From contig OX597816.1 in the NCBI GenBank assembly GCA_951406725.2, positions 177,816,001 through 177,880,000 on the forward strand: 64,000 nucleotides of DNA, in the 5' to 3' direction. This document shows, piece after piece, positions 4,417 through 57,600 of the stretch (position 1 is its first letter; every line of letters begins with the position of its first letter). The notes beneath the pieces are model-generated. The model saw nothing but the letters and a program-made list of their open reading frames with translations. It searched no databases and was not told the DNA's origin. A program made the translations under genes and the position numbers. The DNA comes from Octopus vulgaris. Taxonomy: Eukaryota.

Positions 4417-6380
<1,964 letters not shown>

Positions 6381-10718: not shown

Positions 10719-11135
10719 GGCTGTGTGGTAAGAAACTTGCTTCCCAACCATATAGTTCCGGGAGGTGTCTTCTACTATAGCCTCGAGCCGAACAAAGCCT
10801 TGTGAGTGGATTTAGTAGATAGAAACTGAAAGAAGCCCGTCGTATATATATATTTATATATATATATATGTATTTATATATATATATATATATATATATA
10901 CATACATGGATGTATGTATGTGTATGAGCGTGCGTATGTGTGTGTCCTTGTGTCTGTGTTTGTCTCCCATCACCGCTTGACGACCGGTGTTGGTATATTT
11001 ACATCCCCGTAACTTAGCGATTCGGCAAAATAGGTCGATAGAATAAGTACTAGACTTAAAAAGAAAGTCCTGGGCTCTATTTGTTCGACTAGAATCCTTC
11101 AAGGCGATAGTCAAATCATTGAAACAAGAGGAAGA
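10719..11135 (+). mobile_element. SINE family A
   Basis: ggctgtgtggtaagaaacttgcttcccaacc head, internal (TA)n, family tail. Confidence 0.8.
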
Positions 11136-11145
11136 ATAAAAGAAT

Positions 11146-11510
11146 TTATTCTTTTACTTGTTTCAGTAATCTGACTGTGGCCATGCAGGAGTACGGCCTT
11201 TAGTCGAACAAAACAACCTCAGGACTTATTCTTTGTAAGCTTAGTACTTATTCTATCGGTCTCTTTTGCTGAACCGCTAGGTTACGGGAACGTAAACACA
11301 CCAACAATAAAGGTCAAGCGATGATGGGGGGGGGAAAAACAGATGCAGAAACATATGTACATATATATACGATGGGCTTCTTTTAGTTTCCGTCTACCAA
11401 ATCTACGCACAATGATTTCGTCGGCCCCAGGCTATAGTAGAAGACATTTGTCCAAGGTGTCACACAGTGGGACTGAACACGGAAACATGTGGTCGGGAAG
11501 CAAGCTTCTT
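11146..11510 (-). mobile_element. SINE family A lacking its extreme 5' end
   Basis: Homology stops at caagcttctt; the usual accacacagccac end is absent. Confidence 0.8.
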
Positions 11511-11642
11511 TATTTCATTTAATTGGCCACAAGGGATTTACACAGAAAGGAAGTCTCGGGCTGGACACACACACATAATGATATGAATGACAAATGAAAT
11601 GGGGGAAAATGAGGGCAACAGCAACGCCCGCCGATTACTGTA

Positions 11643-14600
11643 TTACCAAACAGCCACCTCTGTGGCTTCTTACCAAACAACCACCTCTGTGGCTTCTTAC
11701 CAAACAGCCACCTCTGTGGCTTCTTACCACACAGCCACCTCTGTGGCTTCTTATCACACAGCAACCTCTGTGGCTTCTTGCCAAACAACCACCTCTATGG
11801 CTTCCTACCACACAGCCACCTCTGTGGATTCTTACCAAACAGCCACCTCTGTGGCTTCTTACCACACAGCCACCTCTTTGGATTCTTACCAAACAGCCAC
11901 CTCTGTGGTTTCTTACCACACAGCCACATCTGTGGCATCTTATCACACAGCCACATCTGTGGCTTCTTACCAAACAGCCACCTCTGTCGCTTCTTACCAC
12001 ACAGCCACCTCTGTGGCATCTTATCACACAGCCACATCTGTGGATTCTTACCAAACAGCCACCTCTGTCGCTTCTTACCACACAGCCACCTCTGTGGCTT
12101 CTTAACAAACAGCCACCTCTGTGGCTTCTTACCAAACAGCCACCTCTGTGGCTTCTTACCAAACAGCCACCTCTGTGGCTTCTTACCACACACCCACCTC
12201 TGTGGCTTCTTACCAAACAGCCACCTCTGTGGCTTCTTACCAAACAGCCACCTCTGTGGCTTCTTACCAAACAGCCACCTCTGTGGCTTCTTACCAAACA
12301 GCCACCTCTGTGGCTTCTTACCAAACAGCCACCTCTGTGGCTTCTTACCAGACAACCACCTCTGTGGCGTCTTACCACACAGCCACCTCTGTGGATTCTT
12401 ACCAAAAAGCAACATCTGTGGCTTCTTACCAAAGAGTCACCTCTGTAGCTTCTTACCAAACAGCCACCTCTATGGCTTCATAGCAAACAGCCACCTCTGT
12501 GGATTCTTACCACACAGCCACCTCCGTGGCTTCTTACCACAAAGCCACCTCTGTGGCTTCTTACCAAACATACACCTCTGTGGCCTCTTACCACACAGCC
12601 ACCTCTGTGGATTCTTACCACACAGCTACCTCTGTGGATTCTTACCAAACAACTACCTCTGTGGCTTCTTACCAAACAGCCACCTCTGTGGCTTCTTACC
12701 AAACAGCCACCTCTGTGGTTCTTACCAAACAGCCACCTCTGTGGCTTCTTACCAAACAACCACCTCTGTGGCTTCTTACCACACAGCCACCTCTGTGGCT
12801 TCTTAACAAACAGACACCTCTGTGGCTCCTACCAAACAGCCACCTCTGTGGCTTCTTACCACCAGCCACCTCTGTGGCTTCTTACAACACAGCCACCTCT
12901 GTGGCCTCTTACCAAACAGCCACCTCTGTGGATTCTTAACACACAGCCACCTCTGTGGCTTATTACAAACAGCCACCTCTGTGGCTTCTTACCACACAGC
13001 CACCTCTGTGGCTTCTTACCAAACAGCCACCTCTGTGGCTTCTTACCACAAGCCACGTCTGTGGCTTCTACCACACAGCCACCTCTCCAGTGGCTCCTCT
13101 CACCAAACATCCACCTCTGTGACTTCTTACCAAACAACCACCTCTGTGGCTTCTTACCACACAGCCACCTCTGTGGGCTCTTACCAAACAGCCACCTCTG
13201 TGGCTTCTTAACAAACCGCCTCCTCTGTGGCTTCTTACCACACAGCCACCTCTGTGGCTTCTTACCACACAGCCACCTCTGTGGCTTCTTACCACACAGC
13301 CACCTCTGTGGCTTCTTTCCACACAGCCACCTCTGTGGATTCTTTCCACGCAGCCACCTCTGTGGCTTCTTACCAAACAGCCACCTCTGTGTCTTCTTAC
13401 CACACAGCCACCTCTGTGGCTTCTTTCCACACAGCCACCTAAGTGGCTTTTTAACAAATAACCACCTCTGTGGCTTCTTACCACACAGCCACCTCTGTTG
13501 GTTCTTACTAAACAGCCACCTCTGTGGCCTCTTACCAAACATCCACCTCTGTGGTTTCTTACCACACAGCCACTTCTGTGGCTTCTTACCAAACAACCAC
13601 CTCTGTGGCTCTTACCAAACAGCCACCTCTGTGGATTCTAACCACACAGCCACCTCTGTGGCTTCTTAACAAACAGCACCTCTGTGGCTTCTTACCAAAC
13701 AGCCACCTCTGTGGCTTCTTACCAAACAGCCACCTCTGTGGCTTCTTACCAACACCACTCTGTGCTTCTTACAAACAGCCACCTCTGTGGCTTCTTACCA
13801 AACAGCCACCTCTGTGACTTCTTACCAAACAGACACCTCTGTGGGTTCTTACTAAAAAGCCACCTCTGTGGCTTCTTACCAAACAGCCACCTCTGCGGCT
13901 TCTTACCAAACAGCCACCTCTGTGAAACAGCCACCTCTATGGCTTCTTACCAAACAGCCACCTCTGTGGGTTCTTACCAAACAGCCACCTCTGTGGCTTC
14001 TTACCACACAGCCACCTCTGTGTATTCTTACCAAAAAGCCACGTCTGTGGCTTCTTACCAAACAGACACCTCTGTTGCATCTTACCAAACAGCCACCTCT
14101 GTGGGTTCTTAACACAGCCACCTCTGTGGCTTCTCAAAAAACAGACACCTCTGTGGCTTCTTAACAAACAGACACCTCTGTGGCCTCTTACCAAACAGCT
14201 ACTTCTGTGGCTTCTTACCACACAGCCACCTCTGTGGCTTCATACCAAACAGCCACCTCTGTGGCTTCTTACCAGACAGCCACCTCTGTGGCTTCTTACC
14301 ACACAGCCACCTCTGTGGCTTCTTACCACACACCCACCTCTGTGGCTTCTTTCCAAAATGCCACCTCTGTGGCTTCTTACCACACAGGCAACTCTGTGGC
14401 TTCTTACCACACAGCCACATCTGTGGCTTCTTAACACACAGCAACCTCTGTGGCTTCTTACCACACAGCCACCTCTGTGGCTTCTTACCAAAGAGCCACC
14501 TCTGTGGCTTCTTACCAAAGAGCCACCTCCGTGATTTCTTACCAAACGACCACCTCTGTGGCTTCTTACCACACAGCCACCTCTGTTGGTTCTTACTAAA

Positions 14601-17600
14601 CAGCCACCTCTGTGGCCTCTTACCAAACAGCAACCTCTGTGATTTCTTACCAAACAACCACCTCTGTGGCTTCTTACCACACAGCCACCTCTGTGGCTTC
14701 TTACCACACAGCCACATCTGTGGCTTCTTACCACACAGCCACCTCTGTTGGTTCTTACTAAACAGCCACATCTGTGGCTTCTTACCAAACGGCCACCTCT
14801 GTGGTTTCTTTACAAACAGTCACCTCTGTGGCTTCTTACCAAACAGCCACATCTGTGGCTTCTTACCACACAGCCACCTCTGTGGCTTCTTACCAAACAG
14901 CCACCTCTGTGGCTTCTTCCCAATCAACAGCCACCCCTGTGGCTTCTTACCACACAGCCACATCTGTGGCTTCTTACCACACAGCCACCTCTGTGGCTTC
15001 TTACCACAGCCACCTCTGTGGCTTCTTACCAAACGGCCACCTCTGTGGTTTCTTTACAAACAGTCACCTCTGTGGCTTCTTACCACACAGCCACCTCTGT
15101 GGCTTCTTACCAAACAGCCACCTCTGTGGCTTCTTACCAAACAGCCACCTCTGTGGCTTCTTAACAAACAGACACCTCTGTGGCCTCTTACCAAACAGCC
15201 ACCTCTGTGGCTTCTTACCACACAGCCACCTCTGTGGCTTCTTACCAAACAGCCACCTCTGTGGCACTTCTTACCTTAACAGCCACCTCTGTGGCTTCTT
15301 ACAACAGCCACCACTGTGGCTCTTACCAAACAGCCACCTCTGTGGCTTCTTACCACACAGCCACCTCTGTGGCTTCTTACCACACCACAACACCACCTCT
15401 GTGGCTTCTTACCACACAGCCACCTCTGTGGCTTCTTACCAAACAGCCACCTCTGTGGCTTCTTACCAAACAGCCACCTCTGTGGTTCTTACCAAACAGC
15501 CACCTCTGTGGCTTCTTACCAAACAGCCACCTCTGTGGCTTCTTACCACACAGCCACCTCTGTGGCTTCTTACCCAACAGCCACCTCTGTGACTTCTTAC
15601 CAAACAGCCACCTCTGTGGCTTCTTACCACACAGCCACCTTTGTGGTTTCTTACCAAACAGCCACCTCTGTGGTTTCTTACCACACAGCCACCTCTGTGG
15701 CTTCTTACCACAGAGCCACCTCTGTTGGTTCTTACTAAACAGCCACCTCTGTGGCCTCTTACCAAACAGCAACGTCTGTGATTTCTTACCAAACAACCAT
15801 CTCTGTGGTTTCTTACCAAACAGCCACCTCTGTGGTTTTCTTACCACACAGCCACCTCTGTGGCTTCTTACCACACAGCCACCTCTGTGGGTTCTTACTA
15901 AACAGCCACCTCTGTGGCCTCTTACCAAACAGCCACCTCTGTGGCTTCTTTCCAAACAGCCACCTCTGTGGCTTCTTACCACACAGCCACCTCTGTGGCT
16001 TCTTACCAAACAGCCACCTCTGTGGCTTCTTACCAAACAGCCACCTCTGTGGCTTCTTACCACACAGCCACCTCTGTGGCTTCTTACCACACAGCCACCT
16101 CTGTGGCTTCTTACCAAACAGCCACCTCTGTGGCTTATTACCAAACAGCCACCTCTGTGGCTTCTTACCAAACAGCCACCTCTGTGGCTTCTTACCACAC
16201 AACCACCTCTGTGGCTTCTTACCACACAGCCACCTCTGTGGCTTCTTACCACACAGCCACCTCTGTGGCTTCTTACCACACAGCCACCTCTGTGGCTTCT
16301 TGCCAAACAGCCACCTCTGTGGCTTCTTACCACACAGCGACCCCTGCGGCTTCTTACCAAACAGCCACCTCAGTGGCTTCTTACCACACAGCCACCTCTG
16401 CGGCTTCTTACCAAACAACCACCCCTGTGGCTTCTTACCACACAGCCACCTCTGTGGCTTCTTACCACACAGCCACCTCTGTGGCTTCTTACCAAACAGC
16501 CACCTCTGTGGCTTCTTACCACACAGCCACCTCTGTGGCTTCTTACCACACAGCCACCTCTGTGGCTTCTTACCACACAGCCTCCTCTGTGGCTTCTTAC
16601 CAAACAGCCACCTCTGTGGCTTCTTACCACGCACCCACCTCTGTGGCTTCTTACCAAACAGCCACCTCTGCCTGCCACCAACGCTTCTTACCAAACAGCC
16701 ACCTCTGTGGCTTCTTACCAAACAGCCACCTCTGTGGCTTCTTACCAAACAGCCACCTCTGTGGCTTCTTACCACACAGCCACCTCTGTGGATTCTTACC
16801 AAACAGCCACCTCTGTGGCTTCTTACCAAACAGCCACCTCTGTGGCTTCTTACCAAACAGCCACCTCTGTGGCTTCTTACCAAACAGCCACCTCTGTGGC
16901 TTCTTACCAAACAGCCACCTCTGTGGCTTCTTACCAAACAGCCACCTCTGTGGCTTCTTACCAAACAGCCACCTCTGTGGCTTCTTACCAAACAGCCACC
17001 TCTGCTTGACTTCTTACAACACAGCCACCTCTGTGGCTTCTTACCAAACAGCCACCTCTGTGGCTTCTTACCAAACAGCCACCTCTGTGCCTTCTTACCA
17101 AACAGCCACCTCTGTGGCTTCTTACCAAACAGCCACCTCTGTGGCTTCTTACCAGACACAGCCACCTCTGTGGCTTCTTACCACACAGGCCACCTCTGTG
17201 GCTTCTTACCACACAGCCACCTCTGTGGCTTCTTACCAAACAGCCACCTCTGTGACTTCTTACCACACAGCCACCTCTGTGGCTTCTTACCAAACAGCCA
17301 CCTCTGTGGCTTCTTACCAACACCTCTGTGGCTTCTTACCCACACCTCTGTGGCTTCACCACACAGCCACCTCTGTGGCTTCTTACCTTACAACAGCCAC
17401 CTCTGTGGCTTCTTACTAAACACCAAACAGCCACCTCTGTGGTTCTTACCAAACAACCACCTCTGTGGCTTCTTACCAAACAGCCACCTCTGTGGCTTAA
17501 CACCACCCTGGTTCTTAACAGCCACCTCTGTTCTTACTCTGTTTAAACAGCCACCTCTGTGGCCACCTCTGTGGCTTCTTACCAAACAGCCACCTCTGTG

Positions 17601-20600
17601 TCAACACCACCTCTGGCTCTTCCACAGCCACCTCTGTGGCTTCTTCCCAATCAGCCACCTCTGTGGCTTCTTACCACACAGCCACATCTGTGGCTTCTTA
17701 CCACACAGCCACCTCTGTGGCTTCTTACCACACAGCCACATCTGTGGCTTCTTACCACACAGCCACCTCTGTGGCTTCTTACCAAACAACCACACCTGCG
17801 GCTTCTTACCAAACAACCACCCCTGCAGCTTCTTACCACACAGCCACCTCTGTGGCTTCTTACCACACAGCCACCTCTGTGGCTTCTTACCATATCACCA
17901 CCTCTGTGGCTTCTTTCCACGCAGCCACCTCTGTGGCTTCTTACCACACAGCCACCTCTGTGGCTTCTTACCACACAGCCACCTAAGTGGCTTTTTAACA
18001 AATAACCACCTCTGTGGCTTCTTACCACACAGCCACCTCTGTTGGTTCTTACTAAACAGCCACCTCTGTGGCCTCTTACCAAACAGCCACCTCTGTGGTT
18101 TCTTACCACACAGCCACTTCTGTGGCTTCTTACCACACAACCACCCCTGTGGCTTCTTACCTAACAGCCACCTCTGTGGCTTCTTACCAAACAGCCACCT
18201 CTGTGGCTTCTTACCACACACCCACCTCTGTGGCTTCTTACCAAACAGCCACCTCTGTGGCTTCTTACCAAACAGCTACCTCTGTGGCTTCTTACCACAC
18301 AGCACCTCTGTGGCTTCTTACCACACAGCCACCTCTGTGGCTTCTTACACACACCACCTCTGTGGCTTCTTACCACACACCACCTCTGGATTTACCAAAC
18401 CTCTGTGGCTTCTTACCAACACCACCTCTGTGGCTTCTTACCAAACAGCCACCTCTGTTCTTACCAAACAGCCACCTCTGTGGCTTCTTACCAAACAGCC
18501 ACCTCTGTGGCTTCTTACAAACAGCAACAGCCACCTCTGTGGCTTCTTACCACCACCTCTGTGGCTTCTTACACAGCCACCTCTGTGGCTTCTTACCAAA
18601 CAGCCACCTCTGTGGTTCTTACCACACAGCCACCTCTGTGGCTTCTTACCACACACAGCCACCTCTGTGGTTCTTCCCAAACAGCCACCTCTGTGGCTTC
18701 TTACCACACCCACCTCTGTGGCTTCTACCACAGCCACTCTGTGCTTCTTACCACACAGCACCTCTGTGGCTTCTTACCACACAGCCACCTCTGTGGCTTC
18801 TTACCACACAGCCACCTCTGTGGCTTCTTACCACAACCACCCTGTGGCTTCTTACCACACCCACCTGTGGATTCTTACCAAACAGCCACCTCTGTGCTTC
18901 TTACAACAGCCCCTCTGTGGTTCTTACCAACAGCCACCTCTGTGGCATTCTTACCAAACAGCCACCTCTGTGGCTTCTTACCAAACAGCCACCTCTGTGG
19001 CTTCTTACCACACAGCCACCTCTGTGGCTTCTTACCACACAGCCACCTCTGTGGCTTCTTACCAACAGCCACCTCTGTGGCTTCTTACCAAACAGCCACC
19101 TCTGTAGCTTCTTACCAAACAGCCACCTCTGTGGCTTCTTACCAAACAGCCACCTCTGTGGTTTAAACAACAGCCACCTCTGTGGCTTCTTACCACACAG
19201 CAAACCCCTGTGGCTTCTTACCAAACAGCCACCTCTGGGCTTCTTACCACACAGCACCTCTGTGGCTCTATAGCCCCCCGTGGCTTCTTACCAACACAGC
19301 CACCTCTGTGGCTTCTTACCACACAGCCACCTCTGTGGCTTCTTACCAAACAACCACCTCTGCGACTTCTTACCAAACAGCCACCTCTGTGGCTTCTTAC
19401 CACACAGCCTCCTCTGTGGCTTCTTACCAAACAGCCACCTCTGTGGCTTCTTACCACACAGCCACCTCTGTGGCTTCTTACCAAACAGCCACCTCTGTGG
19501 CTTCTTACCAAACAGCTACCTCTGTGGCTTCTTACCACACAGCCACCTCTGTGGCTTCTTACCACACAGCCACCTCTGTGGCTTCTTACCACACACCCAC
19601 CTCTGTGGCTTCTTACCACACACCCACCTCTGTGGATTCTTACCAAACAGCCACCTCTGTGGCTTCTTACCAAACAGCCACCTCTGTGGATTCTTACCAC
19701 ACAGCCACCTCTGTGGATTCTTACCAAACAGCCACCTCTGTGGCTTCTTACCAAACAGCCACCTCTGTGACTTCTTACCAAACAGACACCTCTGTGGGTT
19801 CTTACTAAAAAGCCACCTCTGTGGCTTCTTACCAAACAGCCACCTCTGTGGCTTCTTACTAAACAGCCTCCTCTGTGGCTTCTTACCAAACAGCCACCTC
19901 TGTGGCTTCTTACCACACAGCGACCCCTGCGGCTTCTTACCAAACAACCACCCCTGCGGCTTCTTACCACACAGCCACCTCTGTGGCTTCTTACCACACA
20001 GCCACCTCTGTGGCTTGTTACCACACCACCACCTCTGTGGCTTCTTTCCAAGCAGCCACCTCTGTGGCTTCTTACCAGACAGCCACCTCTGTGGCTTCTT
20101 ACCAAACAGCCACCCTGTGGTTTACCAACAGCCACCTCTGTGGCTTCTTACAACACAGCCACCTCTGTGGCTTCTTACCAAACAGCCACCTCTGTGGCTT
20201 ACCAAACAGCCACCTCTGTGCTTCTTACCAAACAGCCACCTCTGTGGCTTCTTACCAAACAGCCACCTCTGTGGCTTCTTACCACACAGCCACCTCTGTG
20301 GCTTCTTACCACACAGCCACCTCTGTGCTTCTTACCACACAGCCACCTCTGTGGCTTCTTACCAACAGCCACCTCTGTGGCTTCTTACCACACAGCCACC
20401 CTCTGTGGCTTCTTACCACACCCACCTCTGTGGCTTCTTACCAAACAACCACCTCTGTGGCTTCTTACCACACAGCCACCTCTGTGGCTTCTTACAAACA
20501 GCCACCTCTGTGGCTTCTTACCAAACAGCCACCTCTGTGGTTCTTACCACACAGCCACTCTGTGGCTTCTTACCACACACCACCTCTGTGGCTCACCCTA

Positions 20601-23600
20601 AACACCACCTCTGTGGCTTCTTACCAAACAGCCACCTCTGTGGCTTCTTACCACACAGCCACCTCTGTGGCTTCTTACCAAACAGCCACCTCTGTGGCTT
20701 CTTACCAAACAGCCACCTCTGTGGCTTCTTACCACACAGCCACCTCTGTGGCTTCTTACCACACAGCCACCTCTGTGGCTTCTTACCCACACAGCCACCT
20801 CTGTGGCTTCTTACCACACAGCCACCTCTGTGGCTTCTTACCAAACAGCCACCTCTGTGGCTTCTTACCAAACAGCCACCTCTGTGGCTTCTTACCACAC
20901 AGCCACCTCTGTGGTTTTACCAAACAGCCACCTCTGTGGCTTCTTACCAAACAGCCACCTCTGTGACTTCTTACCAAACAGCCACCTCTGTGGCTTCTTA
21001 CTAAACAGCCACCTCTGTGGCTTCTTACCAAACAGCCACCTCTGTGGCTTCTTACCACACAGCCACCTCTGTGGCTTCTTACCAAACAGCCACCTCTGTG
21101 GCTTCTTACCACACACCCCTCTGTGGCTTCTTACCAAACAGCCACCTCGTGGCTTCTTACCACACAGCCACCTCTGTGGCTTCTTACCCACACAGCCACC
21201 TCTGTGGCTTCTTACCACACAGCCACCTCTGTGGCTTCTTACCAAACAGCCACCTCTGTGGCTTCTTACCAAACAGCCACCTCTGTGGCTTCTTACCAAC
21301 AGCCACCTCTGTGGCTTCTTACCACACAGCCACCTCTGTGGCTTCTTACCACACAGCCACCTCTGTGGCTTCTTACCACACAGCCACCTCTGTGGCTTCT
21401 TACCACACAGCCACCTCTGTGGATTCTTACCAAACAGCCACCTCTGTGGCTTCTTACCAAACAGCCACCTCTGTGGCTTCTTACCAAACAGCCACCTCTG
21501 TGACTTCTTACCAAACAGCCACCTCTGTGGCTTCTTACTAAAAAGCCACCTCTGTGGCTTCTTACCAAACAGCCACCTCTGTGGCTTCTTACTAAACAGC
21601 CTCCTCTGTGGCTTCTTACCAAACAGCCACCTCTGTGGCTTCTTACCACAGCGACCCCTGCGGCTTCTTACCAAACAGCCACCTCTGTGGCTTCTTACCA
21701 AACAGCCACCTCTGTGGCTTCTTACCAAACAACCACCCCTGCAGCTTCTTACCACACAGCCACCTCTGTGGCTTCTTACCACACAGCCACCTCTGTGGCT
21801 TCTTACCAAACAGCCACCTCTGTGGCTTCTTACCACACAGCCACCTCTGTGGCTTCTTACCAAACAGCCACCTCTGTGGCTTCTTACAAACAGCACCTCT
21901 TGTTACCAAACAGCCACCTCTGTGGCTTCTTACCAAACAGCCACCTCTGTGGCTTCTTACCACACAGCCACCTCTGTGGCTTCTTACCACACAGCCACCT
22001 CTGTGGGCTTCTTACCAAACAGCCACCTCTGTGGCTTCTTACCAAACAGCCACCTCTGTGGCTTCTTACCAACAGCCACCTCTGTGGATTCTTACCAAAC
22101 AGCCACCTCTGTGGCTTCTTACCAAACAGCCACCTCTGTGGCTTCTTACCAAACAGCCACCTCTGTGGCTTCTTACCAAACAGCCACCTCTGTGGCTTCT
22201 TACCAAACAGCCACCTCTGTGGCTTCTTACCAAACAGCCACCTCTGTGGCTTCTTACCAAACAGCCACCTCTGTGGCTTCTTACCAAACAGCCACCTCTG
22301 TGGCTTCTTACCACACAGCCACCTCTGTGGCTCTTACCAAACAGCCACCTCTGTGGCTTCTTACCACACAGCCACCTCTGTGGCTTCTTACCACACAGCC
22401 ACCTCTGTGGCTTCTTACCAACAGCCACCTCTGTGGCTTCTTACCAACAGCCACCTCTGTGGCTTCTTACCAGACAGCCACCTCTGTGCTTCTTACCAAA
22501 CAGCCACCTCTGTGGCTTCTTACCAAACAGCCACCTCTATGACTTCTTACAACACAGCCACCTCTGTGGCTTCTTACCAAACAGCCACCTCTGTGGCTTC
22601 TTACCAAACAGCCACCTCTGTGGCTTCTTACCAAACAGCCACCTCTGTGGCTTCTTACCACAGAGCCACCTCTGTGCCTTCTTACCACACAGCCACCTCT
22701 GTGGCTTCTTACCAAACAGCCACCTCTGTGACTTCTTACCACACAGCCACCTCTGTGGCTTCTTACCATATACCCACCTCTGTGGCTTCTTACCACACAA
22801 CCACCTCTGTGGCTTCTTACCTAACAGCCACCTTTGTGGCTTCTTACCAAACAGCCACCTCTGTGGTTTCTTACCACACAGCCACCTCTGTGGCTTCTTA
22901 CCAAACAGCCACCTCTGTGGCCTCTCACCAAACATCCACCTCTGTGACTTCTTACCAAACAACCACCTCTGTGGCTTCTTACCACACAGCCACCTCTGTG
23001 GGCTCTTACCAAACAGCCACCTCTGTGGCTTCTTACCAAACAGCCTCCTCTGTGGCTTCTTACCACACAGCCACCTCTGTGGCTTCTTACCACACAGCCA
23101 CCTCTGTGGCTTCTTACCACACAGCCACCTCTGTGGCTTCTTTCCACACAGCCACCTCTGTGGCTTCTTTCCACACAGCCACCTCTGTGGCTTCTTACCA
23201 AACAGCCACCTCTGTGTCTTCTTACCACACAGCCACCTCTGTGGCTTCTTACCACACAGCCACCTAAGTGGCTTTTTAACAAACAGCCACCTCTGTGGCT
23301 TCTCGCCAAACAGCCACCTCTGTGGCTTCTCGCCAAACAGCCACCTCTGTGGCTTCTCGCCAAACAGCCACCTCTGTGGCTTCTCGCCAAACAGCCACCT
23401 CTGTGGCTTCTCGCCAAACAGCCACCTCTGTGGCTTCTCGCCAAACAGCCACCTCCCTGGCTTCTCGCCAAACAGCCACCTCCGTGGCTTCTCGCCAAAC
23501 AGCCACCTCCGTGGCTTCTCGCCAAACAGCCACCTCCGTGGCTTCTCGCCAAACAGCCACCTCCGTGGCTTCTCGCCAAACAGCCACCTCCGTGGCTTCT

Positions 23601-24045
23601 CGCCAAACAGCCACCTCCGTGGCTTCTCGCCAAACAGCCACCTCCGTGGCTTCTCGCCACACAGCCACCTCTCTGGCTTCTCGCCACACAGCCACCTCTC
23701 TGGCTTCTCGCCACACAGCCACCTCTCTGGCTTCTCGCCACACAGCCACCTCTCTGGCTTCTCGCCACACAGCCACCTCTCTGGCTTCTCGCCACGCAGC
23801 CACCTCTCTGGCTTCTCGCCACACAGCCACCTCTCTGGCTTCTCGCCACACAGCCACCTCTCTGGCTTCTCACCACACAGCCACCTCTCTGGCTTCTCAC
23901 CACACAGCCACCTCTCTGGCTTCTCGCCACACAGCCATCTCTCTGGCTTCTTACCACACAGCCACCTCTCTGGCTTCTTACTAAACTTCCACCTCTCTGT
24001 CTTCATGCCACACAACCACCTCTGTGGCTGTTTACCACACAGCCA
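11643..24045. repeat. 27-bp minisatellite array, ~460 units: ACAGCCACCTCTGTGGCTTCTTACCA(A/C)
   Basis: Direct reading; 9-codon periodicity in the ORF track (TATSVASYQ/H); internal hairpin AGCCAC-ctct-GTGGCT. Confidence 0.98.
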
Positions 24046-24117
24046 AGTGGTGGTAGTGGTGGTGGTGGTTGTCGCGGTGGCGGTGGTGGTGGCGGTGCTT
24101 GTGGCGGTGGTGGTAGT
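24046..24117. repeat. Imperfect (GGT)n
   Basis: Direct reading; abuts the right end of the satellite. Confidence 0.8.
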
Positions 24118-25437
24118 GTACGTGTAAATATATGCATATTGATGTGTAATGATTTCAACGTCAAGGTCCGTATTCTAAAGACAGAAGCCTAAAATATTTT
24201 GATTGCATCACCTATTATCAGTATTTGTCTTTACGCTCAAACCAACAGACCTTAAATAAAACGAGTAACATCAGAAAGAGAAGCTACAACCTTATCAGAT
24301 AAATTACCAGATTTGCGACCATTTAGCTTACTTGCACAACTCACAGCGGTCTCTGGCGTAGGAACAGGGAATTGTAAAACAAAGCATTCAACCTTTAAAA
24401 TGCATTACAAAATAATTGTACATTAACAGTATCAACATCATTCTACACAGGAAATATTCATTTCATATTCCCATTAAATAGTGCCTTGTGACAGAAGCAA
24501 AAGTGGAAGGAGCGTTACGCCCTTAGAATAATTGCGTAAGCCAGATAATTTTTAAGTTGTCTCTGAAAATGTATAGTGGCAGGATGTGTGGGTTTCGATC
24601 TTATCAAAACATAGACCTGTTTCTGCTCCGTTACTGGGTGTGAAGATATTTGTAAGAAAAGACCAGGTCGAATATCAGTATATGATGAAAAGGATTCAAC
24701 TCTCCACGCCCTTTTACACCGGTAAACATAGACAGAACACCGACACAGATCCAGATACGTAGAAATATGCTGACGCATACAAATATACATGTATTGACGG
24801 GCTTTGTACAGTTTTCGCGAGTCAAATTCCTTTTACAAGGTATTGATATATAACTTCAGCCTACTAGCTTTTGCTATAATACATTCATATATGTCTAAAC
24901 TAAATTCCTCGAAATGACAATGGATTTGACATTTGTACTACCCCTTCCTCTATCTATAAATAGAAAAAATTCTTGTTTGTCTCTATTGAACCAAGAATAG
25001 AAAACCGCCTCCCCACTGTTAGATCTAAATAACAAAGTGAACTCAGTGATAAAATCTACAAAAGGAGAAGAACATACTACCACCATGTTCTTAATGATGA
25101 AATTAACCTCTCTGTCTATATATCTACCCTCTTTGTAATGTTGGCAAATGAAATAAGTATAAGAATGTGCATTGTCCGTTTAATTAAAAAAAATCTATAT
25201 GTGACTAAAGATTGCTCAACATTTTAAAACTGATATAATACTTACAGTGTTTAATAAAATGAAGTAGCATGAAACAATTGTACTACACTACCTTGGATAT
25301 CTTTGTTGCTTATTTTGATTATAATCACCCCACTTGATTTATATGGATAATACCATACAAAATTCTGGTGCCTTTAACTTAAGTACCACATTCATCTGAA
25401 TCTAAATTTTGGTGAACTTATATATATATATATATAT

Positions 25438-28897: not shown

Positions 28898-30085
28898 ATA
28901 CATATATATGTGTATATATTAAAAGGCAGGATGTGTGTGTGTGTGTGTGTGTGTGCGTACGTGAATGTAATTTATGCACGTCCACAAACTAGAACGCATG
29001 TCGCTCAAATTTTAGGGGGACATGCGTCATGACCCTAGCTGTATTTTCGTCAACTTATTTTTCCGAGAGGCACAAGCGAATAGCAGTAAAAATAAATTTT
29101 CAACCAAAACTTTTAACCATTTTCAAGTCGGAGAAATCATCATTGCTAGCAAACAGGAGTTAAGTCCCCTTCTAGTGACGAGTAAGTTTTTGTTAAGACT
29201 TGTTGTTTTTTTTCCATCTAGGAAAAAAGTGTTTTGTTTACATACGAGCAACACACACACACACACACACACACACGAATATGTATGCATACCAAAAACA
29301 TATATGAAACAGGTGTACGTACGTGCGTGTGTGTATGTGTGTGTGTTGCCCATATATATATAACTCAAGTTATACCAATCATCACTAGAAAAATATGGCG
29401 CCTATTTTAATTGCTACTTAAAGGAGAACTGGAAGAGATATTTGGATGATTGCTTCATACTTTGGAAAGACAGCATGGATAAACTCCTTGATTTCAAAAG
29501 AATGCTCAACAACATACACAGCAATATACAATTCACTATGGAACACAACAGTAAACAAATCCCTTTTCTAGACATCTTAATTAAATAGTTAACAACCACA
29601 TAGAAACAGACATCTTTTATAAACCCACAGATTCTAAACAATACCTATTATTTAACTCCTGCCACCCCAAACACATAAAAATCAACATACCCTTTAACCT
29701 AGCGAAAAGAATCTGCACTATAGTTTCGGATACATAAACTCGAGAACAAAGACTCCTTGAACTTAGATCTACACTAACTAAAAGACATTACCCAATCTCA
29801 TTAATAAATAAAGGCATTAAAAGAGCTAAGGAAATAGATATACAAATGTTAAGGAAAACTAGCCGAAATACTAAACCAGACTCAAAAATACTCCCGTACC
29901 TTTCCACACATAACCCTAAAAACAACGAAGCCTTCAACATCATCACCCAAAATCTTCCCATCCTCACAGCAGACAAAACAATGAGCGAAATTTTAAGCTC
30001 TTACAAAATTATAAAAAGCAACCGAAGTCACTAAAAAAAAATATTAACCAGCGCAAGACTGTATCCACTAACAACAGAGCCAAAA

Positions 30086-30514
30086 GTGACAAAATGTGGA
30101 CGTACTAACTGTGGAACATGCCCCCACCTTCTGGAGGGTTCAGAATTTCACTTCAAACAAGGAGAAATATTTAAGATCAAATCAAATTTCACCTGCGCCT
30201 CAGTAAATGTAATATATGTAATGACATGCATAGGATGTGGTAAACTCTATATTGGACAAACAGGAATTCCACTCCGTCAAAGAGCCACTATTCACAAAGA
30301 GCAAATCCGCCACCCACAATACAGACAGTTAAAGGTGAGTGAACACATAGAAAGGTGTGCCAGGAATCTTAATCCCAATTTCCAAATCTTCCCCTTCTAT
30401 CAATGTTCACAGAACACCACAATACAACAAAGGTTGAATAAAGAGGCATTTTTCATCAATAAATATCTCCCCCAACTAAATATGAGCACACAATTCAATA
30501 CAGAACAGCACTAA
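30086..30514 (+). pseudogene. PLE GIY-YIG endonuclease domain
   Basis: VIY...CxxC...YIGQT motif, conserved R and E, terminal P-x-LN. Confidence 0.85.
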
Positions 30515-38574: not shown

Positions 38575-40863
38575 TAGTTTTATTTTTATAGCGTACTTTC
38601 ACTTCACAACCGAGCGCAGCTCTGTGTGACTTGGGTATGATCTGTGATTTGTTGTGATGCTCTGATGGTTATTGTATGGAATGTGTTCTGCGTAGGATGT
38701 GTGCAGTGCCTAGTAGTGCAATTTTCTGTATGTTATATGTGTTTGTAAGTCCTGGTGTTTTTGTTATGTATTTGTCTGAATATTTTTTATCATACCTAAT
38801 GCACCTACTATGATAGGAATTGTTTCTGTTTTTAGATTCCACATTCGAGTTACCTCTATTTCCAGGTCTTTGTATTTTGAAAGTTTCTCCATTTCATTTA
38901 GAGACACGTTGTCATCAGCTGGTATTGATGCATCAATTAGAAAGCATTTTTTTTCTTCATGATCTCTGACAACTATATCTGGTCTGTTGGCCTTAATTTC
39001 TCTATCTGTGTGTATCGGCATATCCCACTGTATGGTTGCTTTCTCGTTTTCTGTGACCTTTTCTGGTGTGTGCCTATACCATCTTTTTTCTGTTGTTATT
39101 CCATAATGTTGGCATAGCTTCCAATGTATGTAGGTTCCAACTCTGTCATGTCTGTGAATATATTCCTTCTTAGCCAGGACTGGGCAGCTAGAGATAATAT
39201 GATTTATTGTTTCTTGTCCATCTCCACATATTCTGCAGTTACTTGTTATGTTTCTTTTCATTATATGTTTTTGGTGGGAAGGCTTTGGTCTTGTGCTGCA
39301 ATTAAAAATCTCCCCGTCTCTGCTTTGAGTCCTGAGCTTCTCAACCATTGCTGGGATTTTTCTTTGTCTATTTCTTTTGCATTTAGCTTAGTCCAGTATT
39401 TGCATGAAGGAGCTTTTCTTCCCATCGTTCCCTTCTTCTTCTTCTTCATATTTGTTAGGTGGTATGATTTCTTGTTTGTATTTGTCAGCTTCCTTAAATA
39501 CTGAGAACAGTTTTTTGCTTTGCTCGTGTTTTGCTGCTATTTGTATCAGTTTCCCTTGCTTCTGAAGTAGATATTTTTGCAGTCCTATGGTGGTTATTTT
39601 ATAGTAGTTTTCCAGCTGTATAAGTCCTCTACCACCTTCTATACGTTGTATATATAGCCTTTCTATGTCAGATTTTGGGTGATGCATCCTAGATCCTGTC
39701 ATTATTTTTCTTGTTTTCCTATCTATTTTGGTTAGTTCATTTAGCGTCCAGTTAAGGATATTGTAGCTGTAACTTATAACTGGGACGGCTAAAGTGTTAA
39801 TACCTATTATCTTGTTTTTAGCATTGAGCTCTGTTTTTAGTATTGATCTAACTCGTCTATAATATTCTTTCTTTATTTTCTCTTCCATTTGTGTGTGTTG
39901 TGTCTTACCTAGTTCATGGATTCCTAAATATTTGTAAGTTTGGCTTTGGTCTAATTCTCTTATTTCATTGGTTTTATCTAATGTGATGTTGCTACTCTAA
40001 ACTAGTTTCCGTTTTTTCAGGGCTACTTTGGCGCATTTTTCTAATCCAAATTTCATATCTATTTCTTTGGTAAATCCATGAACTGTCTTTAATAGTGTTT
40101 CCAGCTGTTTGTCATTTGCAGCGTATAGTTTTAGGTCATCCATATATAAAAGGTGGCTGATCGTTTTGCCGTAACATTTGTATCCGCATCCAGTCCTATT
40201 TAGCATATCAGATAGAGGTGTCAGTGCTAAGCAGAAAAGGAGTGGAGAGCGCGTGTCTCCCTGGAATATTCCTCTTCTAATGGGGATGACTTTGGTTTTC
40301 AAGAGGCCCTCTTTTGTTTGGAGCTGTAGCACTGTCTGCCATTTATTCATGGAGTGTCTTATGTATTTTATAATTGTTGGTGCTACCTTGTTAAGGGCTA
40401 TTGTTTCGAGGATCCATGTGTGGGGAATGCTATCAAACGCCTTTCGGTAGTCGATCCAGGCCATACTGAGGCCTTTCTTCTTTCTGCGGTTGTCTTCAGT
40501 TATGGCTTTATTGATCATTAGTTGATCTTTACAGCCATATGAGCCCTTGCAGCATCCTTTCTGCTCTTCTGGGACGAGGTTGTTTTCGTCCAGGTGCTTG
40601 TTCAATCTTTGCGATATTACTGCAGTAAGGGCTTTGTACATGGTAGGGAGACAGGTTATAGGTCTGTAGTTTTGTGGTTTTGCTGTTTCATTGGATTTGG
40701 GAATTAAGATTGTTTCCCTTTCGTGAGTCATTCAGGCATTGTCTCTGGCTCTGCCAGTATGTCGTTAAAGTTTTCAGCCAGCTTTTTGTACATTCCTGTC
40801 AGATATTTCAACCAGAAGTTGGGGATCTTGTCTTGCCCAGGTGCCTTCTTGTTGCTTAGTCTT
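38572..40863 (-). mobile_element. R4/Dong-clade non-LTR retrotransposon (RT + RLE), 5'-truncated
   Basis: KAPGQDKIPNFWLK, YRPITCL, IDYRKAFDS, GIFQGD, YMDD; CRIC...H....C knuckle, RHD, RPDIV...LID (PD..D endonuclease); 3' end abuts (TAA)n. Confidence 0.9.
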
Positions 40864-51779: not shown

Positions 51780-52181
51780 TCTTTACTCTCTCTTTTACTC
51801 TTTTTACTTGTTTCAGTCATTTGACTGCGGCCATGCTGGAGCACCGCCTTTAATCGAGCAAATCGACCCTGGGACTTATTCTTTGTAAGCCCAGTACTTA
51901 TTCTATCGGTCTCTTTTGCCGAACCGCTAAGTGACGGGGACGTAAACACACCAGCATCGTTGTCAAGTAATGCTAGGGGGACAAACACAAACACACACAC
52001 ACACATATATATATATACATATATACGACAGGCTTCTTTCAGTTTCCGTCTACCAAATCCACTCACAAGGCATTGGTCGGCCCGGGGCTATAGCAGAAGA
52101 CACTTGCCCAAGATGCCACGCAGTGGGACTGAATCCAGAACCATGTGGTTGGTTAGCAAGCTACTTACCACACAGCCACTC
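51780..52181 (-). mobile_element. SINE family A, full length
   Basis: Intact head ggagtggctgtgtggtaagtagc and a (AAGAGTA)-like tail. Confidence 0.9.
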
Positions 52182-55784: not shown

Positions 55785-56280
55785 TGCTTTAGTCAGCGGT
55801 TTAATTCTTTAAAGCCAGGTATTTATTCTAGCGATCTTTTTTGCCGAACCGCCAAGTTACGGGAACATAAACAAACTAACAACGGTTGTCTAGCGGTGGT
55901 GGTGGGGACAAACAGAAATACACGAGTGGGGACAAACACAAGCATACGATTGGGGTGGGGATGAAAGGTTCCTGGCTTTAAGGGTGCACGAAATGCCTGG
56001 CTGGAGGTCCAACCTTCCGAGTTCTTTTAAAGAGTTTAGAGGACTGCTGTAAAAATTGTAATTAACTGATCCCCCTGTATTTTTCTTTTACCCAAAGCCA
56101 AGAACTTTTCAGCACCCTCTCGCATATACATGACAGGCTTCTTTCAATTTCCATCAACCAAATCCTCTCACAAGCCTTTGGTCGGCCAAGGTCAACAGTT
56201 GAAGATACTTTCTGAAGGGATTGAACCTGGAAACGTGTAGCTGGGAAGCAACCTCCTTACTACACGGTCACACCTGAACC
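55785..56280 (-). mobile_element. Old SINE family A copy with a mariner-like MITE (55947-56122) nested in its central microsatellite
   Basis: SINE halves flank the MITE TIRs. Confidence 0.65.
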
Positions 56281-56329
56281 TATAAGAAGTTCCTTCTCGA
56301 GACATAGAATCATAAGGCCGTTTTCCAGG

Positions 56330-57396: not shown

Positions 57397-57600
57397 TTTT
57401 CTTTTACCCAAAGCCAGGAACTTTTCAGCACCCCTTCGCATATACACGACATGCTTCTTTCAATTTCCATCAACCAAATCCTCTCACAAGCATTTGGTCG
57501 GCCAAGGTCAACAGTTGAAGATACTTTCTGAAGGGATTGAACCTGGAAACGTGTAGCTGGGAAGCAACCTCCTTACTACACGGTCACACCTGAACCTATA
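57397..57600. repeat. ~200-bp direct duplication of 56080-56283
   Basis: Near-identical MITE-end plus SINE-head composite. Confidence 0.85.

Follow-up and report, generated by a model that had tools for sequence, protein, structure and literature searches.

Satellites built from pieces of short interspersed elements (SINEs) have been described in several animal groups. In squamates, the SINE-derived satellites (sSats) sSat1-3 consist of tandem copies of part of a transfer RNA (tRNA)-related SINE, and their terminal unit is longer and leads on into the remainder of the element; that account leaves open whether such satellites occur outside squamates (PMC10702118). Alu- and B1-derived minisatellites are likewise short units cut from a SINE and expanded in situ (PMC3389668, PMC6947457), and 136 partial-Alu duplications at 5' ends have been reported, with an L1 endonuclease site proposed as their cause (PMC3389668). 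Here, we describe a 64,000-nucleotide (nt) stretch of Octopus vulgaris DNA (the window; assembly GCA_951406725.2, contig OX597816.1, positions 177,816,001 to 177,880,000), in which positions 11643..24045 are occupied, on the minus strand, by a 27-bp minisatellite of about 465 units. The array matches the 5' head of a SINE whose headless body lies 130 bp beyond the array's end, and we consider it likely that it grew in place from a doubled head into a single-locus minisatellite that is itself likely neutral. SINE-derived satellites are thus already known (squamates, Alu, B1); the octopus array is set apart by a very short, head-only unit and by two features that are new, a genome-wide hot spot for the doubling of this head and the overlap of that hot spot with the target site of a target-specific retrotransposon. 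That is, whereas the Squam3 units described in squamates measure 67-215 nt and mostly include box B or the SINE body (PMC10702118), the octopus units measure 19-34 nt and comprise the head only, with an A-box but no B-box, and whereas the Alu-derived arrays described average 2.3-2.4 units, with a mean partial Alu of 89 bp (PMC3389668, PMC6947457), a 27-bp promoter piece is repeated here about 465 times. We found no account of SINE-head arrays in octopus in the literature, subscription papers being mostly outside the search.

Tandem Repeats Finder (TRF) placed the minisatellite at 11643..24045 of the window with a period of 27, 462.5 copies and 86% matches, and a wrap-around, unit-by-unit alignment resolved 465 units (371 of them 27 nt long) of 202 types, in agreement with the extent and the roughly 460 copies given by an earlier reading of the letters alone (the sequence-only reading). 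On the evidence of TRF, the unit alignment and a profile of 41 SINE copies, the unit covers the 5' part of the SINE, starting at about base 4 and running through the end of the tRNA-like D-arm, and includes an A-box-like 11-mer. Perfect copies fall into two variants that differ at one base, A (98 units) and C (76 units); the majority variant has A at unit position 9 (269/463 units), and the 371 full-length units differ from the majority by a mean of 4.2% substitutions when this A/C site is excluded. The array is thereby long, homogeneous and head-to-tail, as sSats are. A 20-mer of the unit matches the window 389 times with up to three mismatches, compared to 0.02 times expected from shuffles, and every exact match of a junction-spanning 26-mer in the 2.8-Gb genome (183 in all) falls in this window. 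Hence, the 27-bp unit is single-locus: no exact copy of this junction occurs at a second locus of this genome, in which the sequence-only reading had suggested looking for other arrays of the 27-mer, and the array is not a member of a multi-locus satellite family, although related units with other periods exist elsewhere. The repeat also occurs in contigs from four DNA runs, each of a different study and together under three organism labels, as stretches of at least two tandem units that show 0-1 differences over 53-60 nt; it is therefore genuine and shared beyond a single assembly. No RNA run was listed with the repeat, which speaks neither for nor against its expression. Units with many indels are concentrated at 17-21 kb (in three 1-kb bins, they make up 14-18 of about 38 units); these clusters may be read errors, in which case part of the array's variation and its exact length would be affected.

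When read on the minus strand, the C-variant unit aligns without gaps to the SINE 5' end over its full 27 nt, with 23/27 identities to the majority sequence of 41 SINE copies chosen through a downstream anchor, and with 25/27 if common SINE variants are counted, which removes two of the four differences. The sequence-only reading had suggested aligning the unit to SINE consensus sequences; its claim of a likeness to the SINE 5' end was borne out, whereas the length it gave (20 of the 27 nt) fell short, and the SINE copies it quoted at 52159-52179 and 10719 are present as written. Even the 7-nt spacer, taken alone, matches common head variants at 5/7 places (chance, about 0.03). The SINE is abundant in the same genome, a 35-mer of its head having 1876 exact matches, so that, as with sSats, the tandem unit is homologous to part of a resident SINE. 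That this parent SINE is tRNA-derived, as the same reading held, is only moderately supported: at a relaxed threshold of 80%, ARAGORN made 18 calls on the 41 SINE heads compared to none on 41 shuffles, albeit with inconsistent anticodons, while it made none on the same heads at 90%, and Rfam gave no tRNA match for the head. This derivation thus draws in part on established knowledge of SINEs that carry A- and B-box-like motifs.

The inner end of the array connects it to one particular SINE copy. Along the minus strand, the last unit (11643..11664) is cut after GGTAA and can be read as the left half of an interrupted SINE head; it is followed by a 3' fragment, about 130 bp long and with an A-rich end, of an interspersed element that we call X (11511..11642), and then by a headless SINE body (11150..11510) that begins at SINE position 24 (AAGAAGCTTG), exactly where the head was cut. 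The body shows 9 differences from the SINE majority in its first 74 nt, compared to a mean of 7.3 for the other copies. The passage from the terminal unit into the rest of the SINE that characterizes sSats is therefore found here across the 130-bp insertion, and is direct in two further arrays on contigs C21 and C3 (below). The most economical interpretation takes array, X and body as a single SINE; its head would have been amplified, and either afterwards or beforehand it would have been separated from the body. Since the body starts where the last unit stops, behind an X fragment that occupies this site in 8 of the 11 other X copies fetched, we think it most probable that the array arose by amplification, in place, of the head of this very SINE; this continuity, together with independent head arrays elsewhere that run into intact bodies, supports an origin of the array from the SINE head more strongly than the sequence-only reading had argued. 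At its other end, the outermost unit (24030..24046, minus strand) is a 5'-truncated head without the 7-nt spacer and adjoins a (CAC)n simple repeat (24047-24118 on the plus strand). Outside the array, a second SINE copy (10719..11128, plus strand) stands tail to tail with the headless body, the two opposed copies of the 10719-11510 interval meeting near 11130-11150.

The genome contains 40 or more relatives of element X, 40 being the number of matches scored among 269 candidates; its copies are variably 5'-truncated, and one spans about 1.95 kb. In addition to the headless SINE body that follows 8/11 fetched copies, the left half of the SINE head was recognized upstream of X in 5/11, four of them with a duplication of about 10 bp (judged by eye), so that X appears to have a sequence-specific target with target duplication; the five include locus L022, where another element lies in between. 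In its variable 5' truncation, A-rich end, single site within another repeat and short duplication, X resembles the target-specific non-LTR (long terminal repeat) retrotransposons of the Tx1 clade and their passengers (Tx1-Mar, SINEU), and SINEU is described as recurrently adding RNA-derived heads at 5' ends (PMC4494074). The likeness is one of structure and target only: the seven X-derived frames scanned gave one weak zinc-knuckle match, below the Pfam cut-off, and neither a reverse transcriptase nor an endonuclease. The octopus array differs from the squamate sSats, as far as these are described (PMC10702118), in that a second element splits its terminal unit and in that the doubling junctions overlap that element's target site.

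The window array is not an isolated accident of one SINE copy. Patterns designed for doubled sequence found 762 matches in the genome for the SINE head, compared to 51 for a body control and 9 for a B-box control, with 1, 0 and 2 matches, respectively, for the backward controls. A hand count among the matches listed for contigs C1 and C2 gave 72 doubling loci for the head, 8 for the body and 1 for the B-box, and among 62 SINE copies chosen neutrally, both of the anchors on which each pattern relies were intact in 16, 16 and 9, respectively. Head doubling is, accordingly, a genome-wide hot spot. The periods of the doubled heads range from about 19 to 34 bp; most are dimers, the fetched runs hold 3 to 10 heads, and a SINE body stands behind 19 of 21 fetched head runs (partly in one more, and not in the last). 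Two large arrays of another period were found as well. One (G000:C21:41960871-41965549; L122, L123) holds about 140 copies of a 33-bp SINE head that are 96-97% alike, begins at the full SINE 5' end, ends in an intact body with a B-box, and lies 5.0 Mb from the contig end; the other (G000:C3:17389251-17390733; L102:4252-5734), 17 Mb from the contig start, comprises 45 copies of a 33-bp SINE head in several interleaved variants and ends in a SINE body. Loci derived from these searches come from the first 100 matches of each, so their numbers are minimum values and other large arrays may exist; among the matches listed, the window array is the largest of this genome-wide series. The combination of many short loci with a few long ones is also seen for squamate sSats, where arrays reach about 950-1200 units and one species is reported with a single very long locus (PMC10702118). 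As side observations, a strand excess of 141 vs. 76 matches of a short-period head pattern on the contigs after C16 hints at another array of some 60 units, and a short 26-bp tandem run from the SINE body (G000:C21:16022821-16022924) indicates that other parts of the SINE also seed arrays, if more rarely.

We suggest the following course of events. A second SINE 5' end would have been joined on close to, or exactly at, the spot used by X. This could have happened through priming or insertion at a nick in the X site, the outer body being lost, or else through a template jump at the SINE 5' end. The resulting dimer would then have been amplified at the DNA level by slippage and unequal exchange, which we regard as very probable for this step: local growth at the DNA level is supported by runs of identical rare variants at 23301-23760 and by short variant strings that recur 170-369 units apart in the array. 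X would have inserted at the last head, separating head from body, before or after the array grew. The 27-bp register sets AGCCAC and GTGGCT around a 4-nt loop, that is, a potential 6-bp hairpin across each unit junction, with z-scores of -5.4 and -4.7 on the two strands of the window array compared to 0.03 to -1.8 for the two 33-bp arrays; this hairpin may explain why the window array outgrew the others, one case being set here against two.

With respect to the first doubling, we lean towards a step linked to retrotransposition over plain slippage, with little more than even confidence. The second head nearly always starts at the SINE 5' end, the junctions lie within about 10 nt that overlap the site of X, and in 15 of 45 head pairs the inner head extends further into the SINE 5' end than the outer one, a difference that could not have come from copying the outer head locally; taken together, these observations favor a retrotransposition-linked join, and the outermost unit of the window array is truncated in the same manner as the outer heads of those pairs. 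The competing explanation, plain replication slippage or unequal exchange within one SINE head through AG microhomology, with the position of the X site a coincidence, we consider possible but rather unlikely. It would account for the 27-bp register, in which the internal AAGC is aligned over the 5' TAGG, and for the 11 fetched loci (L129, L132-L141) that show doublings of 27 bp in the same register; slippage is, moreover, the textbook route for Alu and B1 minisatellites (PMC6947457), and the body control also shows duplications of the microhomology type. It accounts less well for the roughly ninefold excess of the head over the body control at equal anchor retention, for the longer inner heads and for the almost constant start of the second copy at the SINE 5' end. 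Several observations weigh against a retrotransposition-linked join or the descent from the SINE on which it builds. Both heads are full in 28/45 pairs, several of which share private variants or flank (L063, L106, L121), as duplication at the DNA level predicts; the inner heads of the 45 pairs were selected by the search patterns and about 6 of the rows are inner pairs of arrays. The junction is not one fixed base, the 72 loci dividing by eye into 29 right after GTGTGG, 22 in the next 2-7 nt, 20 after AGC(T) and 1 other, and the left edge of this spread is set by the search anchor; a single junction for all doublings had been forced by our first pattern and was given up when a freer pattern returned three clusters over about 10 nt. 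At the array itself, X is flanked by a duplication of 2 nt, not 10, and the X-derived frames scanned showed no reverse transcriptase or endonuclease that could have made the nick. The joint between X and the array is crossed by one short-read contig only, with 40 and 28 letters on the two sides, too few under the bridging rule applied, and the run behind it (X1) may be the assembly's own source. Two bases of the unit differ from all 41 or from most SINE copies. Lastly, nested insertion of a whole SINE that kept the outer body was rejected, as a second headless body within 1.5 kb was found at 0 of 23 doubled-head loci.

The remaining alternatives concern what the array is rather than how it began. 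The sequence-only reading saw it as a satellite amplified from a SINE promoter fragment; the origin from the head has held up, on account of the array's own headless body and the other head arrays that run into intact bodies, but the function implied has not, and we judge it improbable that the array acts as an RNA polymerase III (Pol III)/TFIIIC element, be it as a reservoir of A-boxes pairing with the neighboring B-box or as an insulator-like landing pad. Such a role would find some support in the 139 units that keep the looser form TRGCNNNRYGG and the 132 that keep the exact SINE-type 11-mer, all oriented toward the B-box, in the presence of the repeat in DNA runs under three organism labels, and in yeast SNR6, where widely separated boxes are brought together by a nucleosome and long spacing can work (PMC9136082). 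Yet the form TRGCNNARYGG, with which that reading had SINE heads begin, is matched by 0/465 units, the invariant A being T in the array and in 34/41 SINE copies, and the majority variant degrades the box further by also losing R. There is no B-box within the 465 units. The neighboring SINE does bring one (11470..11479, minus strand), but this SINE is the array's own headless body, the motif has its first G changed to T, and its start is 178 bp away from that of the last A-box vs. about 44 in an intact copy of the 41-copy profile, outside the natural spacing of 31-93 bp in yeast (PMC11724288); the giant A-box array pairing with its neighbor is thus not supported. Further, yeast TFIIIC relies mainly on the B-box, which it binds at nanomolar affinity as opposed to micromolar for the A-box, and a pseudo-A-box failed to replace a real one (PMC11724288). 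A working promoter is therefore unlikely, as judged from the motifs, and the array is probably unimportant as a regulatory element; the C21 array, with its intact body, is the better locus for asking whether upstream A-boxes matter. It is less plausible still that the repeat, with its unit of nine codons, forms a coding exon for a mucin-like protein rich in Ser/Thr, with the SINE likeness secondary. The unit is a multiple of three, 5/6 frames are open in the consensus and stop-to-stop frames reach 1122 codons, but synonymous changes (18-21% seen vs. 20-28% possible) do not exceed chance in any consensus-open frame, the Ser/Thr frame contains every one of the three possible stops, only 12/92 off-length units differ by a multiple of three (some indels being probably read errors), and the flanks are mobile elements. 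We give equally little credence to a satellite of separate origin whose likeness to the SINE is accidental, or to an assembly artefact: read error might explain the indel-rich clusters at 17-21 kb, and with them part of the variation and the exact length, but the gap-free 27-nt match continuous with a SINE body, the tandem units in contigs from four studies and the 202 distinct unit types with ordered sub-runs all speak against it.

Mobile elements are also found elsewhere in the window. A 409-codon frame (4691-5917, plus strand) that encodes C2H2-type zinc fingers and matches a reverse transcriptase in part is a retroelement fragment; a GIY-YIG nuclease domain at 30035-30511 (plus strand) presumably belongs to a fragment of a Penelope-like element; and a broken long interspersed element with reverse transcriptase and zf-RVT matches lies at 38767-40731 (minus strand). 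Two diverged but mutually near-identical SINE copies (56132-56285 and 57446-57600, minus strand), 1.3 kb apart and with the same downstream flank, reflect a local duplication. Scanning 26 of the 83 longer frames outside the array against Pfam revealed domains of mobile elements only and no host gene, although short exons would be missed by this approach. We rejected a run of CCCTAA at positions 4-75 as a sign of a subtelomeric location, as 4.6 Mb separate the window from the end of its 182-Mb contig and the run recurs, with the sequence that follows it, inside an interspersed element at locus L022. These telomere-like repeats (1-140 of the window and about 1225-1330 of L022) are thus part of an interspersed element away from the chromosome end; at L022, the element that bears them sits between the SINE head and X.

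The octopus array extends SINE-derived satellites to a cephalopod, and its locus is likely a hypervariable marker. A more general, and tentative, hypothesis, to which we assign less than even probability, is that a target-specific retrotransposon system that nicks the A-box region of the SINE acts as a minisatellite factory, producing hundreds of head-only doublings of 19-34 bp at one spot, of which the seed with a register that chances to form a hairpin runs away to 12 kb. In a bolder and speculative variant, the outer heads would be copies of 5' fragments of SINE RNA, cut in the manner of tRNA fragments and captured by template jumps. If the factory hypothesis is true, a single genome holds the whole series (2, 3-10, 45, 140 and 465 units) with a defined trigger of satellite birth. 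Of all steps in minisatellite birth, the initial duplication is understood least, and here one SINE family offers many seeds, dated by their divergence and of various periods, at one hot spot beside a candidate trigger, with three of them grown large. Therefore, the SINE-head series allows a direct test of how arrays start and expand.

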